Part shown: in pieces, positions 7,054-14,375 of the stretch
Position numbering within the stretch: the stretch's first letter is position 1
How the letters are laid out: every line of letters starts with the position of its first letter
DNA from: Candidatus Rariloculaceae bacterium
GTDB taxonomy: Bacteria > Pseudomonadota > Gammaproteobacteria > Steroidobacterales > Rariloculaceae
DNA length: 64,000 bases
NCBI GenBank assembly: GCA_965221035.1
Contig: OZ244860.1
Location: 992,687-1,056,686 of the forward strand
Direction: 5' to 3'
Made by a program: the position numbers and the translations under genes
Notes under the pieces: generated by a model
What the model was told of the DNA's origin: nothing
What the model saw: the letters and a program-made list of their open reading frames with translations, nothing else
Databases searched by the model: none

Positions 7054-7854
7054 TCAGTGCGTCATCGAGTAGATCAGGTAATTGACGGCGAACCGATAGG
7101 CCAGCGCGGTCATGGGCTCCGGATACCACGGGTCATCTGCATGCTCCCAGGCATCACCCATGTCCATGTTGAAGTTGATCGCCACCATGAGCCGCCCGTC
7201 ACTGTCGAAAATTCCCCGCCAGTGGGGCACCGTACCCTCCCTGTTGCCTCCCCGACCGGGTATCTGGGTGCGTTGGTCGAGGTCGTAGAGCACGTGCAAC
7301 AGCGGATGGTCTTCCGCAAGCTCGAGTATCGGGCGGTCGGGGAATACCAGCCGCATGGACTCGTTGAAGATGTACCACTCGTATTCCCCCCAAAAATCGT
7401 CGACCATCAGGAATCCGCCCCGGTCGAGATATTCTCGCAGCAGCGTGGCTTCGGAAACGCTGAGTTCCCACTGCCCGACCTCGACCGCGTACAGCCACGG
7501 GTAGTCGAACAGCCGGTCGTCGTCCAGGGTAATGAGCCGGCCACCGTCGCCGTAGTAGTCAACGGGCTGCCCGTCCACGCGGGTCAGGCGATTGACGCCC
7601 TGCATGAGGTGGTATTCCGCGTCCGCGTAGTCCGTGCTCCACGCGCCTCCGCCACCCCAACCCCGGCCGCGGCGGCTGGACGGAGAGTTTCTGTACACGA
7701 GTCGGGCAAAGTGAAATTCAGCGGTGGGGCCTCCCTCCAGTCGGGAATCCCCGCCGCCCTGCCCGGCGGCCGTTCCGACCCACAGGAAAGCCGCCAGCAC
7801 CGCGACGCCCGTACCGAACGCGGCGGAGGATGTGCACCGCCGATTTGTTGCCAC
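7054..7854 (-). CDS. DUF4159 domain-containing protein (secreted)
   Basis: C-terminal 230 aa (FHFARLVY...WSTDYADAEYHL...DYPWLYAVEVGQWELS..EA..LREYL.RGGFLMVDDFWG...) looks like DUF4159. The track ORF runs to 8283, but that part is antisense to the neighbouring sulfatase. I place the start at GTG 7854 before a signal-like segment AAFGTGVAVLAAFLWVGTAAG. Start uncertain. Confidence 0.65.
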   Translation of the reverse strand: MATNRRCTSSAAFGTGVAVLAAFLWVGTAAGQGGGDSRLEGGPTAEFHFARLVYRNSPSSRRGRGWGGGGAWSTDYADAEYHLMQGVNRLTRVDGQPVDYYGDGGRLITLDDDRLFDYPWLYAVEVGQWELSVSEATLLREYLDRGGFLMVDDFWGEYEWYIFNESMRLVFPDRPILELAEDHPLLHVLYDLDQRTQIPGRGGNREGTVPHWRGIFDSDGRLMVAINFNMDMGDAWEHADDPWYPEPMTALAYRFAVNYLIYSMTH

Positions 7855-7942
7855 GTCGTCTCGCCTCCCGATGCCCCCAAGAAACCAGACGATTATGACA
7901 CTCAACCCCTTCCGTGCCAAAGCGCGCAAACCATTGCGTATA

Positions 7943-9397
7943 ATGCGACCCGTGACGTCACCCCGCTCCACCCTTTTCCTTCTGCTCGTACTGGCCACGC
8001 CGGCCGGGTGGCTCCACGCGCAACCGGTCACGTCACCCGACATCCTCTTCATCGCGATCGACGACCTGAACGACTGGGTCGGGCCGCTGGACGGGCATCC
8101 GCAAGCTAAGACGCCCAACATGGACCGCCTCGCCGAGCGGGGCATGGTTTTCGCCAACGCGCACACGACCGCCCCATTGTGCAACCCTGCCCGGACGGCA
8201 CTCATGACCGGCCTGAGCGCCGCGACGACCGGCGTGTATGTGAACCAGCCGGACTGGCGCACGATGGACATCTTTCGGGACATTCGTACGCTACCGGGAC
8301 ACTTCCAGGATGCCGGCTACGCCACCCATGGCGCCGGCAAGCTGTTCCACTCCAGCACGTTCAATGCCTGGGCCTATTACGGCTACAACGACACCACCGC
8401 CTGGGATGGCTACTATCCGTCGCTGGATCGGCAGCTCCCCGACGAAATCAGGCCCCACGATATTCCGGCCAACGGCAACCCCCATGGCGTGAGGTTCGAC
8501 TGGGCGCCGATTTACGCCGACGACCGGGCCATGGGCGACGGTCAGGTCACCGCCTGGTCCACGCAACAGCTCCTGACCGAAATCGACGGTCCCCGATTCG
8601 ATGCCGTGGGCATCTATCGCCCCCACCTGCCCTGGTACCTGCCGCAGAAGTACTTCGACCTGCACCCGCTTGACACCGTGGAACTTCCACCCGTACTGGA
8701 AGACGACCTCGACGACGTCTCCGAGATCGCCAGGATGCAGGGCCACACCACCCCGGGAGGGCCGATGGAAGTCCACCAGTGGGCACTGGAGGCCGGTGTG
8801 TGGAAGGATGGCGTTCAGGCGTATCTCGCCAGCGTCAGTTTCGCCGATGCCATGCTGGGACAGGTGCTAGACGCGCTCGAACAAAGCGGGCGGGGGGACG
8901 ACACCATCATTGTGATGTGGTCCGACCACGGCTGGCATCTGGGTGAGAAGGCGCGCTGGCGCAAGCACTCCCTGTGGCGCGAGTCCACACGCGTTCCGCT
9001 GATCGTGGTGGCCCCGGGCGTGACCCGGCCCGGTAGCCGCTCGAATACGCCCGTGTCGCTGCTGGACCTCTACCCCACGCTCACCGAACTGGCCGGGTTG
9101 CCAACGCCGGACCACGTTGAAGGGCTGAGCCTGTTGCCCCTGCTTCGGGACCCGTCATCGACCCTGGAGCGAATGGGCGTCGTCACCACGTTCGGTTACC
9201 GTAATCACGCCGTCAGCAGCGGGCGCTACCGGTATATCACCTACTCCGATGGCTCCGAAGAACTCTACGATATTGACACCGACCCGCACGAATGGAGCAA
9301 CCGGGCCGCGGACCCCGCGTTGGCGACAGTCAAGGCCGAATTGACGGATTGGCTGCCGCGGCACAATGAACCCGACGCGCGCACGGTGCAACCTTGA
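7943..9397 (+). CDS. sulfatase (Cys-type, secreted)
   Basis: Signal peptide MRPVTSPRSTLFLLLVLATPAGWLHA, then ILFIAIDDLNDW and the signature CNPARTALMTGL. An alternative ATG lies at 7895. Confidence 0.85.
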   Translation: MRPVTSPRSTLFLLLVLATPAGWLHAQPVTSPDILFIAIDDLNDWVGPLDGHPQAKTPNMDRLAERGMVFANAHTTAPLCNPARTALMTGLSAATTGVYVNQPDWRTMDIFRDIRTLPGHFQDAGYATHGAGKLFHSSTFNAWAYYGYNDTTAWDGYYPSLDRQLPDEIRPHDIPANGNPHGVRFDWAPIYADDRAMGDGQVTAWSTQQLLTEIDGPRFDAVGIYRPHLPWYLPQKYFDLHPLDTVELPPVLEDDLDDVSEIARMQGHTTPGGPMEVHQWALEAGVWKDGVQAYLASVSFADAMLGQVLDALEQSGRGDDTIIVMWSDHGWHLGEKARWRKHSLWRESTRVPLIVVAPGVTRPGSRSNTPVSLLDLYPTLTELAGLPTPDHVEGLSLLPLLRDPSSTLERMGVVTTFGYRNHAVSSGRYRYITYSDGSEELYDIDTDPHEWSNRAADPALATVKAELTDWLPRHNEPDARTVQP

Positions 9398-10257: not shown

Positions 10258-10629
10258 ATGCAATTTAAACGACTGGCCCTTGTCTTCATTGCTGCCCAGG
10301 CCGTCTCAACGACCGCCTGGGCGCACCACTCCCACGGCAACTACCAGATGACCGAGTACATCGAGCTCGATGGGACAGTCACGGACCTTTATTTCATCAA
10401 TCCCCACGTCTGGCTGTATATGGATGTGGCAATGGAAGACGGGGAAACCGTGACGTGGGCCATGGAAGCCGCCGGCGCATCAACGCTTTCCAGAGCCGGG
10501 ATCGCCGAGGACGAACTCGAGCCCGGCGATGAGATTCACGTGAAGTGTCACGCGCTGAGGGACGGTTCGCCCGGTTGCCTGCTGGGATTCGTCACCACCC
10601 CTGACGGTGTCGTGAAAGAGTGGGATTGA
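10258..10629 (+). CDS. small secreted HHS/NPH-motif protein (resembles the DUF6152 type)
   Basis: 123 aa with a GGGAG Shine-Dalgarno. The signal peptide ends ..TTAWA and is followed directly by HHSHGNY, with NPHVW 36 residues after the HHS. It is a paralog of 13320..14375 and 21769..22158. Confidence 0.65.
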   Translation: MQFKRLALVFIAAQAVSTTAWAHHSHGNYQMTEYIELDGTVTDLYFINPHVWLYMDVAMEDGETVTWAMEAAGASTLSRAGIAEDELEPGDEIHVKCHALRDGSPGCLLGFVTTPDGVVKEWD

Positions 10630-10667: not shown

Positions 10668-10690
10668 GCCCACATGTTTGGGCGTTTTTT
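10668..10690 (+). terminator. possible rho-independent terminator
   Basis: GCCCA-catgtt-TGGGC stem-loop followed by g-TTTTTT, 39 nt after the stop at 10629. The stem is short (5 bp). A second GC hairpin (GCCCGC...GCGGGC, about 10631..10660) precedes it. Confidence 0.4.
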
Positions 10691-10753
10691 GGGCGTACGA
10701 CAACGCCAAGGGCATCGTTTAGAATAGGGATCGGACCGGACGGAGAATCGCAA

Positions 10754-11095
10754 ATGACCACCAGGGTTGATTGGTACTACCACCGCAACGGGTGAACCGG
10801 TTGTACCCGGGCTTCCAAGTTTCTGGAGGCCAATCACATCGAGATCGGCGAGCGGGTACCCGCAAGCAGGAAGCTGCAGGCGGCGGATGCCTCAGCCATT
10901 TTGGAGAACGCATCGCTTCTGATCGTTTCCATGGGCAGGAAGGTCAGCGAGTTTTCCGGCGACGGCCTGTCATCGGATGAAGCGGTAGCGGCCATGCTCG
11001 GGCGGACGGGCAATCTGCGTGCGCCGACGGCCCGGGTGGGCGAGACGGTGCTGGTGGGATTCAACGAAGACGTTTATTCGAGCGTATTCGCCTGA
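10754..11095 (+). CDS. ArsC/Spx-family glutaredoxin-like protein with in-frame TGA (candidate selenocysteine, U-x-x-C motif)
   Basis: ATG 10754 (GGAG 8 nt upstream) reads MTTRVDWYYHRNG-TGA(10793..10795)-TGCTRASKFLEANHIEIG...GRTGNLRAPTARVGETVLVGFNEDVYSSVFA, ending at stop 11095, all in one frame. The TGA sits exactly where ArsC-family proteins carry the first Cys of CxxC. The track shows only the C-terminal 64 aa (10901..11095). Confidence 0.6.
10811..10830 (+). promoter_or_regulatory. SECIS-like hairpin downstream of the in-frame TGA
   Basis: GCUUCCA-AGUUUC-UGGAGGC gives a 7-bp stem (one G-U pair) and a 6-nt loop containing G and U. The stem starts 15 nt after the UGA, so the loop lies roughly two dozen nt downstream, in the range I recall for bacterial SECIS elements. 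Confidence 0.4.
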
Positions 11096-11348: not shown

Positions 11349-11669
11349 GTGGAGCACCGTAGACAGCTCCCCAAGGAAATCCGCACCGAAATTCGACGGG
11401 CCCGAAGAGCCCAGGGACGGAGTCAAGGCGATGTCGCCCGAGATGTCGGTTTGTCGCAAAAGCACGTTTCCAACATAGAGACGGGAAAGGTTGTTCCGCG
11501 AGTCGACACTCTGCTCGAAGTCGCGTGGGCGCTGAATCTGGAGTTGGTTCTCGTCCCACGCAGCGTCAAGGCAGCGGTCAACTCGCTTGCCCGCGGTCAA
11601 TCCGGTCCCGATTCGCCAAACACCTCGGAAGCACCGTGGTTCGAGGATCTGACCGAGGACAAGGGCTAG
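11349..11669 (+). CDS. hipB: XRE-family helix-turn-helix antitoxin (HipB-like)
   Basis: 106 aa with a GTG start. HTH segment SQGDVARDVGLSQKHVSNIETGK. Its stop is 7 nt before the hipA ATG. Confidence 0.8.
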   Translation: MEHRRQLPKEIRTEIRRARRAQGRSQGDVARDVGLSQKHVSNIETGKVVPRVDTLLEVAWALNLELVLVPRSVKAAVNSLARGQSGPDSPNTSEAPWFEDLTEDKG

Positions 11670-11676
11670 CAGACCC

Positions 11677-12957
11677 ATGGGAGGGGTACTTGAGGTCCTG
11701 CTGGGCGACGTTCGTGTCGGGATACTCGCCCGCGAAGCCGGCGGGAGACTCCGATTCCTGTTTGACGAGCAGTATTCGGAGATGTCGAACCGCCCCATAC
11801 TCAGTCTCTCCTACGAGGCCGCGCCCGGGCAACTGATGGGTATTGCGCCCAGGGCATACGCCGGACGCCTCCCACCCTTCTTCTCGAACCTTCTGCCGGA
11901 GGGCCCGTTGCGCGACTTGTTGATCCAGCGGGCCGGGGTACCGCGTTCGGATGAATTCGCCCTGCTTTGCGCACTCGGAGTGGATCTGCCAGGGGCTGTC
12001 AGGGTTGTCGATCCCGGTGCTAGTGCCGCCACCACCACCGATCATCCCTCCCGTCACCAACAGAACCGGCCGGGCGAGTCCCCGCTGCGCTTTTCGCTGG
12101 CCGGTGTACAGCTCAAGATGTCGGCGGTGCTCAAGGCGGGGGGCGGGCTGACGATCCCGCCGTCGGCAGGCGTCGGCGGCGACTGGATCGTCAAGTTGCC
12201 GGCCATGACAATGGATGCGCTTCCCGAAAACGAATTCGCGATGATGACCCTGGCTTCCGAAACCGGCATCCCCGTACCCGAAGTCGGGCTGATCGCGCTC
12301 GATGACGTGTCAGGCCTGCCGGACGAAATGCGTGATGGGTCGGGACGCGCATTGGCGGTTCGGCGTTTTGATCGACCGGTGGACGGAGCGCGGGTGCATA
12401 TGGAGGACTTCGCGCAAGTATTCGGGAAGTTCCCGGAAAGCAAATACGAGGGTCACAGCTACGCGAACATCGCCGCCGCATTGGCCGCCACAAGCTCCAA
12501 CGGACGGGAAGAAGCAATGGCCATTGTGCGTCGGGCCGTATTTTCCGTTCTGATCGGCAACGGAGACGCGCACTTGAAGAACTGGTCCGTCCTGTACGAA
12601 GACCCGGTCCAGCCCGCGCTCAGCCCCGCCTACGACCTCTTGTCGTCGATCCCTTATATTCCGCACGACCAGCTCGCGTTGGGGTTCGGCGGAAGCAAGG
12701 ATTTTCTTCCCTTCGACGACCGGCGTGTGGCGCGGTTCGCGAGGGCCGCGCGACTGCCCTTCGAAGCCGTTCGAAGGGAATGCTTGGAGACCGCGGAGCG
12801 CACGCTGGCCGCGTGGGCACGGCACGAACAGCGAGACGTGCTGCCCCGGAAGATCGACCAGACGGTTTCAACGCACATGGAGTCGGTGGCGCTTGGCATA
12901 TCGAAGTCGGTGGCTTCGCGAACCCGGCGCCGCAAAAGCAACCCGAAGGGGATATAG
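11677..12957 (+). CDS. hipA: type II toxin-antitoxin system HipA family toxin (Ser/Thr kinase)
   Basis: 426 aa. It has a HipA N-terminal coupling region, FSLAGVQLKMS, ALAVRRFDR and the catalytic loop GNGDAHLKNWSVLY. Confidence 0.9.
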   Translation: MGGVLEVLLGDVRVGILAREAGGRLRFLFDEQYSEMSNRPILSLSYEAAPGQLMGIAPRAYAGRLPPFFSNLLPEGPLRDLLIQRAGVPRSDEFALLCALGVDLPGAVRVVDPGASAATTTDHPSRHQQNRPGESPLRFSLAGVQLKMSAVLKAGGGLTIPPSAGVGGDWIVKLPAMTMDALPENEFAMMTLASETGIPVPEVGLIALDDVSGLPDEMRDGSGRALAVRRFDRPVDGARVHMEDFAQVFGKFPESKYEGHSYANIAAALAATSSNGREEAMAIVRRAVFSVLIGNGDAHLKNWSVLYEDPVQPALSPAYDLLSSIPYIPHDQLALGFGGSKDFLPFDDRRVARFARAARLPFEAVRRECLETAERTLAAWARHEQRDVLPRKIDQTVSTHMESVALGISKSVASRTRRRKSNPKGI

Positions 12958-13050: not shown

Positions 13051-13126
13051 TGGTGGAGCCGAGGAGATTCGAACTCCCGACCTCTGCATTGCGAACGCAG
13101 CGCTCTCCCAACTGAGCTACGGCCCC
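13051..13126 (-). tRNA. tRNA-Ala (anticodon CGC)
   Basis: The reverse complement reads GGGGCCGTAGCTCAGTTGGGAGAGCGCTGCGTTCGCAATGCAGAGGTCGGGAGTTCGAATCTCCTCGGCTCCACCA. It forms a cloverleaf with the G3:U70 Ala identity pair, anticodon loop UUCGCAA and an encoded CCA. Confidence 0.95.
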
Positions 13127-13319
13127 ACCGTGCGGTGCGGGCGGAATTATCCCGCATTTGGCGCGGCGTAGCCATATTTACGCAGTTGATGCGGCGCGCG
13201 CAGGGTCGCATCGAGCATCCCGCATACCTTGATCCGTCGCCCTTGGCAGAGGTAGTGTCTTGTCAGCGCCGACCAATCTGAAATCAAGCCTTGCGGCGCA
13301 CGGCTTCGGGAGGATGATC

Positions 13320-14375
13320 ATGCGCAAGCAGTTGACAACACCGGCGGCCCGGCTGGCGACGGGCCTCGCGGGAACGCTCGCGGTCTCCGCGACGCTCGCG
13401 CATCACTCGGCGCGTATCACCTATGACATGGATTCCGTCATCGAAATCCGGGGCGAAATTACCGAAGTGGTTTGGCGCAACCCCCACGTGCGCTTCACCC
13501 TTGCCGGCGTGGACGAAGGCGGCACGCTCGAGACCTGGAACATCGAGAGCATTCCGGTCACGCGTCTGGATCGCGTCGGCATCACGCAAGGCATGCTTGC
13601 AATCGGCGACACGGTGACGGTGGCCGCATACCCCGCCAGACGCCCGGTACACGACGCCTATGCCATCAACATGCTGTTGGCCGACGGCCGCGAGGCGCTG
13701 CTGGACACCCCCGTCGCCCGCTGGACGGACAACACCGTGGGCACGGGCCTCGACGAGACACCCGGCACCCCCGGCGCCGATGCGTCCCTGGGCATCTTCC
13801 GGGTCTGGAGCACCGATGGTTCCTTCCTGCGCACGGAGACGCGCTTTCTCACCGAAGGCGGAACACTCGACTACCCGCTTACGGAAGCGGCGCTGGCCGC
13901 GCAGGCCGGGTGGGACCCGCTTGCCCCGGACAACCCCTTCCTCACCTGCACGCCCAAGGGAATGCCGACCATCATGCAGCAGCCCAATCCCGTGGAATTC
14001 ATCGACAACGGGGATAAGATTGTCTTCCGGATGGAGGAATTCGACACCCGGCGGATCATCCACATGACCGAGGGTGCCGGAGACCCCGACGCACCGCCAT
14101 CGGCGCTCGGGTACTCCACAGGCCGCTGGGAAGACGGCTCGCTCGTGGTGCGCACGACCCGTATCAATTGGCCCTGGTTCGACCAGAACGGCCTGCCTCA
14201 AAGCGAGGCCATGGAAACCCTGGAACGCTTCACGGTGAACGGGGAAGGCAGCCGCCTGGATTACGAAGTCGTCGTCACCGATCCGTGGCTGTTCACTGAA
14301 CCGGTCACCCTCGCCAAGTCCTGGCGATGGATACCCGGAGACGAGGTGCGGCGTTTCGATTGCACGGACGACTGA
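13320..14375 (+). CDS. secreted protein with N-terminal HHS/NPH (DUF6152-like) module plus about 230-aa C-terminal extension
   Basis: GGGAGGA Shine-Dalgarno before ATG 13320. The signal peptide ends ..SATLA, then HHSARITY...WRNPHVRF, aligning with the two 120-130-aa paralogs. I do not recognise the remainder. Confidence 0.6.
   Translation: MRKQLTTPAARLATGLAGTLAVSATLAHHSARITYDMDSVIEIRGEITEVVWRNPHVRFTLAGVDEGGTLETWNIESIPVTRLDRVGITQGMLAIGDTVTVAAYPARRPVHDAYAINMLLADGREALLDTPVARWTDNTVGTGLDETPGTPGADASLGIFRVWSTDGSFLRTETRFLTEGGTLDYPLTEAALAAQAGWDPLAPDNPFLTCTPKGMPTIMQQPNPVEFIDNGDKIVFRMEEFDTRRIIHMTEGAGDPDAPPSALGYSTGRWEDGSLVVRTTRINWPWFDQNGLPQSEAMETLERFTVNGEGSRLDYEVVVTDPWLFTEPVTLAKSWRWIPGDEVRRFDCTDD

Follow-up and report, generated by a model that had tools for sequence, protein, structure and literature searches.

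Organization of the locus and reading frame

The window analysed here, a stretch of 64,000 nucleotides from a Candidatus Rariloculaceae bacterium, contains on its forward strand a predicted full coding sequence for an ArsC-family selenoprotein at positions 10754..11095. The frame runs from ATG 10754 to a TGA stop codon at 11093-11095, and its sole interruption is a further TGA triplet at 10793..10795 (+), which represents codon 14. Reading this triplet as selenocysteine (U) yields the product MTTRVDWYYHRNG-U-TGC-TRASKFLE...VYSSVFA, which consists of 113 residues and reproduces as written the 113-codon frame through TGA 10793..10795 proposed in the original prediction. The in-frame TGA supplies the U of a UxxC motif (U14-T-G-C17), whose resolving Cys17 is encoded by a TGT codon at 10802..10804 (+). 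The GGAG sequence that had been announced upstream of the start codon was located as a Shine-Dalgarno sequence at 10742..10745 (+), leaving an 8-nt spacer to ATG 10754, and GGAG or AGGAG is present at the equivalent site in 11 of the 12 orthologues described below. All that a mechanical list of open reading frames reports of this gene is a TTG-started fragment at 10901..11095 (+), corresponding to the 64-amino-acid piece mentioned in the original prediction, and position 10901 is the nearest start downstream of the TGA in the window.

Upstream of the gene are a sulfatase gene (7724-9397) and a gene for a DUF6152-domain protein with a signal-peptide-like N-terminus (10258-10629, +). A hairpin resembling a terminator, followed by a T-run, ends the latter gene at 10668..10693 (+), which suggests that the selenoprotein gene forms its own transcription unit; the consensus scan that identified it is weak, with one terminator found versus 1.3 expected in shuffled sequences. 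An equally tentative sigma-70-like promoter candidate with only 9 of 12 consensus matches (ACGACA-17-TAGAAT) is present at 10697..10725 (+). Immediately downstream of the selenoprotein gene follow a HipB-like helix-turn-helix gene (11349-11669, +), a gene for a HipA-like kinase toxin (11677-12957, +), a tRNA-Ala(cgc) gene on the opposite strand (13051-13126, -) and a gene for another DUF6152-domain protein with a signal-peptide-like N-terminus (13260-14375, +). The HipB/HipA pair may represent a small insertion next to the tRNA gene.

The gene order upstream of the selenoprotein locus is conserved within the genus (11 loci). No ars genes (arsR, arsB or acr3) are found beside the selenoprotein gene within the window, and comparing the neighbourhoods of 93 loci did not reveal any broadly conserved partner gene. 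After setting aside the top clusters, which are antisense artefacts of the gene itself, the largest real neighbour clusters consist of a putative CstA-like gene (20 loci) and a putative nitroreductase-like gene (13 loci), both labels being our reading of the sequences. Because no widely conserved partner occurs in the 93 loci, the genomic context is uninformative on the function of the protein. Three forms of the gene with a Cys codon in place of the TGA adjoin a DedA-type (VTT_dom) gene; since the three contigs appear closely related, this neighbour was set aside as a functional lead.

Conservation of the in-frame TGA and its flanking codons

A search of 40 related genomes retrieved an orthologue in 11 of them besides the genome of the window itself, giving 12 in all. 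Each of these 12 full-length orthologues contains exactly one in-frame TGA, which is invariably codon 14 and is embedded in the motif G-*-T-[GS]-C. One of the related genomes additionally carries a second, partial copy (L031; G011:C1:2756953-2757063, -), which covers residues 1-37 including the TGA, lies about 1.5 kb from the full-length gene of the same genome and may be the remnant of a duplication. Scanning named genomes yielded 597 confirmed loci, the best 80 of which were examined at the TGA column, and all 80 contain TGA in the column of codon 14. The record titles of these best 80 loci span at least five phylum-level groups and include Gammaproteobacteria (Pseudomonadales, the K189A clade, Azotimanducaceae, Rariloculaceae), Myxococcota, Acidobacteria (Vicinamibacterales), Binatia, Gemmatimonadota and Spirochaetaceae. 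Altogether, TGA is thus present in 92 of the 92 loci examined. Because the same TGA recurs in the related (12/12) and the named genomes (80/80), it is neither a sequencing error nor a strain-specific nonsense mutation, and both explanations were ruled out.

Among the ten codons 5' of the TGA, those for W, Y, R and G always specify the same amino acid but vary synonymously at the nucleotide level (GGC/GGT/GGA/GGG for Gly, CGC/CGT/CGG/CGA/AGA for Arg, TAC/TAT for Tyr). Judging from this pattern, the codons before the TGA are clearly translated in the same frame and under selection at the protein level. On the other side of the TGA, the resolving Cys17 is invariant across the loci, being encoded by either TGC (48 loci) or TGT (32 loci).

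Among the 120 best database homologues, six full-length proteins carry Cys in the column of the TGA, and about 95% of these nearest 120 homologues represent Sec forms. In Spx, the U14 column corresponds to the first Cys of the CxxC motif. These alignments bear out the earlier proposal that the TGA falls on the position of a redox-active cysteine, as the homologues show either TGA (92/92) or, in rare cases, Cys exactly there. When 400 genomes were sampled evenly across the same class, only one further carrier and no Cys forms turned up, indicating a patchy distribution of the ArsC-family selenoprotein.

The protein databases reflect this conservation poorly. Out of the same 120 homologues, 104 were deposited in truncated form, starting downstream of the TGA, and ten as full-length proteins with W at this position, in addition to the six with Cys mentioned above. 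Even one homologue that is already named for the corresponding protein family model NF041106 (P0051) is truncated to 90 residues. With 104 of 120 entries truncated and ten read with Trp, the databases misrepresent the family systematically.

A covarying hairpin downstream of the TGA

The original prediction described a 7-bp hairpin with a G/U-containing 6-nt loop at 10811..10830 (+), which is indeed present and whose SECIS-like role is backed by covariation. Its arms are formed by GCUUCCA (10811-10817) and UGGAGGC (10824-10830), which enclose the loop AGUUUC (10818-10823), and the stem is extended by an eighth pair in the genome of the window (G10810-C10831). The hairpin starts 15 nt after the UGA and contains the dinucleotide G-U in its apical loop. 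When folded as a single sequence, it represents the minimum-free-energy structure, but its z-scores of -1.3 to -1.7 relative to shuffled sequences are not significant; therefore, we judged it by covariation instead. Scanning the whole window against Rfam at gathering thresholds identified two tRNAs and no SECIS family, a result which does not exclude a bacterial SECIS element.

For the covariation analysis, 80 distinct sequences were aligned without gaps, beginning at the TGA. The seven stem pairs are formed in 92% of the cells of this alignment, compared to 25-41% after shifting the 3' partners by 1-3 columns. Changes on both sides were observed at three stem pairs. At one of them, C-G is replaced by U-A in two sequences, accompanied by an exchange of Leu for Ile or Val, and at another one U-A is replaced by G-U in two sequences, accompanied by the exchanges Ser to Ala and Glu to Val. 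The remaining pair, which consists of two third-codon positions, occurs as C-G (16 sequences), G-C (15 sequences), U-G, G-U, U-A or A-U. None of 500 shuffles reached the observed covariation score or the observed percentage of paired positions. At this pair of third-codon positions, which is the third pair of the stem, 37 sequences have an A-A or A-G mismatch, indicating that the stem tolerates an internal mismatch there, and the loop nucleotides G10819, U10820 and U10821 are invariant in all 80 sequences. Because the hairpin is located inside the sequence coding for the conserved peptide ASKFLEA, part of its conservation could be driven by the protein, and the case for selection acting on the RNA itself is made only by the covariation at the third-codon positions and the two double amino acid changes.

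The DNA of five Cys-form homologues served as a control. In four of the five, only 4-6 of the seven pairs can be formed and the local folding energy lies between -2.4 and -8.6 kcal/mol, compared to a mean of -10.0 kcal/mol for the 80 Sec forms, none of which is weaker than -5.8 kcal/mol. The fifth Cys form (L113:154-492) has all seven pairs, but its loop reads GAU rather than GUU, and it may have arisen by a recent conversion from Sec to Cys. We regard this control as supporting rather than decisive, because it comprises only five sequences whose peptides are more diverged and one of which keeps the hairpin.

Selenocysteine machinery and a second selenoprotein gene

The genome from which the window was taken consists of one contig of 3.82 Mb and is 98.7% complete. 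It contains all four components for Sec insertion for which a search had been recommended, each of them scoring above the respective curated cut-off. The selA gene (107488-108849, +; 552 bits) is directly followed by selB (108889-110766, +; 328 bits), and a tRNA-Sec gene (selC) with the anticodon tca (UCA) is located about 90 nt after the end of the selB match (110857-110945, +; 82 bits). The selD gene (ca. 277.8-280.1 kb, -; 278 bits) makes up the C-terminal half of a fusion of 758 residues and is preceded by a pyridine-nucleotide-disulphide oxidoreductase domain (Pyr_redox_2), which forms the N-terminal half. Fusions of this kind are known for SelD. The active-site motif of this SelD, CGGCGAK, contains Cys rather than Sec.

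Outside the locus described here, a SelW-like gene of the Rdx family (PF10262) is present at genome positions 2395666-2395875 (+), which contains one in-frame TGA giving the motif CGQU (CxxU). It is equipped with a hairpin of the sequence GCCUCC-GGUCU-GGAGGC, which begins 17-18 nt downstream of the first nucleotide of the UGA and likewise contains G-U in the loop. This hairpin is nearly identical in sequence, geometry and offset to that of the ArsC-like gene (GCUUCCA-AGUUUC-UGGAGGC), as expected if one SelB reads both, and we give this similarity more weight than the control with the Cys forms. Checking two molybdopterin oxidoreductases and two CMD-domain proteins of the same genome did not reveal any in-frame stop codon. 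On these grounds, selenocysteine appears to be used in at least two genes of the organism.

Decoding of the internal TGA

If the TGA were a true stop, the gene would either be a pseudogene or give rise only to a shorter downstream frame of 64-79 amino acids, which is what the 64-amino-acid piece of the mechanical list and the 104 truncated entries among the 120 best homologues seem to imply. This reading is so improbable as to be negligible, because the TGA occurs in the same column of all 92 loci from several phyla, the 13 codons upstream of it are under in-frame selection at the protein level, and a start codon with a Shine-Dalgarno sequence is conserved at the full-length start. Moreover, translation from a downstream start would leave a thioredoxin fold without its first strand, its first helix and its redox motif, and the nearest such start is available in the window only at 10901. 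Decoding of the TGA as Trp, Gly or Cys, either via a variant genetic code or by near-cognate read-through, would agree with the ten homologues deposited with W at this position, yet is extremely improbable. The one W form that was compared (P0002) matches a locus (L105) whose DNA contains TGA, and the W entries look like gene calls in the style of genetic code 4, which provide no evidence for Trp. Reassignment of TGA throughout the genome would be at odds with the gene's own terminator at 11093, which is likewise a TGA, so that this codon serves as a stop here. In addition, only the internal TGA is followed by the conserved and covarying hairpin, the genome contains a complete Sec machinery, and the homologues carry a redox-active Cys at this position, whereas Trp or Gly would destroy the motif.

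Taken together, the comparative data make us highly confident that the gene at this locus truly encodes Sec and belongs to the known family of ArsC-like UxxC proteins. We infer that selenocysteine is actually inserted during translation: a complex of SelB, GTP and Sec-tRNA(Sec) would bind the hairpin at 10811-10830 as a bacterial SECIS element and deliver selenocysteine to the UGA at codon 14, instead of termination by release factor 2 at this codon. The second TGA at 11093, which is not followed by such a hairpin, would then act as the real stop codon.

Family assignment, fold and potential function

The translated product matches the NCBIfam model NF041106 "ArsC family (seleno)protein" with 104.6 bits (cut-off 85, E = 4e-30), and residues 5-108 align with positions 1-107 of the 107 model positions. 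Other models score lower: the match to Pfam PF03960 (ArsC) stays below the gathering threshold (16.2 bits vs. 24, E = 0.014), that to the Spx/MgsR model TIGR01617 reaches 23.8 bits relative to a cut-off of 75.05, and the NCBIfam models for nitrogenase-associated proteins and glutaredoxins match weakly. An arsenate-reductase model is absent from the NCBIfam matches at E-values up to 1.

Searching the PDB with a profile of the family retrieved a putative arsenate reductase (2M46; 2.4e-7) and several Spx structures (about 2e-6), and further matches included YffB and an ArsC-related protein; the E-values for Spx- and ArsC-related PDB chains range from 2e-7 to 4e-5. In these alignments, U/C14-x-x-C17 falls on the CxxC motif of the matched chains, and the C-terminal motif L-R-x-P...G-[FY]-N-E is common to the family and the matched proteins. 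A confident AlphaFold model (m20968310a007) based on 35 family sequences was obtained, with a pLDDT of 91.5 and a pTM of 0.82. It places the Sec position directly before helix 1 (residues 15-26), as in CxxC proteins with a thioredoxin fold, and shows the invariant Pro91 preceding a pair of strands (92-95 and 98-101), where it probably represents the usual cis-Pro of this fold. The insert of the model (residues 43-81) consists of one helix, a β-hairpin (55-60, 63-68) and two short helices; in Spx and ArsC, an all-helical domain occupies this position. Foldseek ranked Spx first, followed by ArsC-related proteins and glutaredoxins, with TM-scores of 0.5-0.58. The profile and the top fold matches support a distant kinship with the ArsC/Spx superfamily despite the sub-threshold Pfam score, in agreement with the ArsC/Spx-type thioredoxin-fold layout proposed initially, and the low TM-scores to solved structures allow only a loose assignment of function.

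Provided that Sec is inserted, the redox centre U14-x-x-C17 would be located at the N-terminus of helix 1, at the position of the CxxC motif of Spx, and the protein would cycle between the selenol/thiol and the selenenylsulfide forms as a small oxidoreductase. No signal peptide is recognizable by eye. The product is most likely a stand-alone cytoplasmic selenol/thiol oxidoreductase.

Two other roles were considered for a Sec-containing product. The catalytic Cys of R773 ArsC resides at the equivalent N-terminal position, and together with the weak Pfam match this could be taken to point to a genuine glutaredoxin-coupled arsenate reductase. Members of the group have also been labelled "arsenate reductase 2" or "arsenate reductase-like" in the literature (PMC2398784, PMC9312934). 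Nevertheless, we consider a function as true ArsC very unlikely, since the NCBIfam search returned Spx-type and related models and none for arsenate reductase, ars genes are not adjacent in the window, the 93 loci do not share a conserved neighbour, and the UxxC motif is of the dithiol type known from Spx rather than a single-Cys site as in ArsC. That the protein acts instead as a Spx-like redox-sensing regulator, which binds RNA polymerase and has no enzymatic activity, would be in line with Spx as the best match to solved structures by both profile and fold and with the position of UxxC on its CxxC switch. This role is very unlikely as well, because the TIGR01617 score is far below its cut-off and the TM-score is about 0.55, a β-hairpin instead of an all-helical domain is predicted for the insert that separates strands 2 and 3, and the chain falls short of Spx by about 18 residues and has no equivalent of its C-terminal tail. 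By these criteria, the protein of the window, though ArsC/Spx-like, appears to be neither a true arsenate reductase nor Spx, and a small oxidoreductase remains the preferred interpretation.

A more far-reaching proposal starts from the high proportion of Sec forms (about 95% of the nearest 120 homologues) and from the predicted insert with a β-hairpin, found where Spx and ArsC have their helical domain. According to this proposal, the family would represent a branch of its own within the ArsC/Spx superfamily, one that depends almost obligately on Sec and serves as a selenium-based redox sensor or regulator and not as a housekeeping oxidoreductase. We give it very little credence; if true, it would describe the first Sec-dependent Spx-like switch.

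Implications for annotation

The immediate consequence of the analysis is a correction to the annotation of the genome, in which a selenoprotein of 113 residues replaces the fragment of 64 amino acids. Beyond this, three points are worth keeping: the clean covariation behind the SECIS element of the family, the matching element of the SelW-like gene, and the extent to which public databases store truncated proteins. The wider point is limited to the truncated calls, as 104 of the 120 best homologues have been cut in the same way by gene callers.

Comparison with known systems

The SECIS element of Escherichia coli fdhF has the loop AGGUCU, the G-U of which is required for SelB binding and occupies positions +23/+24 if numbering starts with the U of UGA (+1). 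The hairpin of the ArsC-like gene resembles it in being placed directly 3' of the UGA within the coding sequence and in having a 6-nt loop with G-U, which is found at +27/+28 and therefore a few nucleotides farther from the UGA than in fdhF. Unlike the fdhF element, it does not contain a conserved bulged U, and many members of the family are mismatched at the third pair.

Spx of Bacillus subtilis (1Z3E, 6GHO) belongs to the same superfamily and provides the best fold match; its CxxC motif (CTSC) corresponds to UxxC, and both proteins share the motif R-x-P...G-[FY]-N-E. The protein of the window differs from Spx by being about 18 residues shorter and devoid of the Spx C-terminal tail, by the replacement of Cys by Sec and by the predicted middle insert. 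The phylogenetic distribution is also different, as the family occurs in Proteobacteria, Myxococcota and Acidobacteria, whereas Spx is found in Firmicutes.

ArsC-like selenoproteins from bacterial genomes were reported as early as 2006 (PMC1794560), the marine selenoproteome from the GOS data of 2008 includes an "Arsenate reductase 2" with UxxC (PMC2398784), and a review from 2022 includes an "Arsenate reductase-like protein, COG1393, UxxC" (PMC9312934). Our searches did not find an experimentally studied member of the ArsC-like UxxC family in the literature, and a search of the literature from 2015 onward for an ArsC family selenoprotein with UxxC did not return any match. The entries of 2008 and 2022 share the ArsC/Spx-type thioredoxin fold and the UxxC motif with the protein of the window and derive mainly from uncultured marine or environmental bacteria; they can be likened to the NF041106 subfamily by their domain labels, with one accession being given. 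The assumption of the original prediction that the gene belongs to a known family and had been missed in annotation agrees with these reports and with the NF041106 score above the cut-off. Because ArsC-like UxxC selenoproteins and their decoding mechanism are already known, the result is an annotation repair and not a discovery. Compared to the model NF041106 (ArsC_rel_Se_1) itself, the protein has the same length and carries Sec/Cys as the first residue of the U/CxxC motif, and it appears as an ordinary member of this family without any substantive difference.
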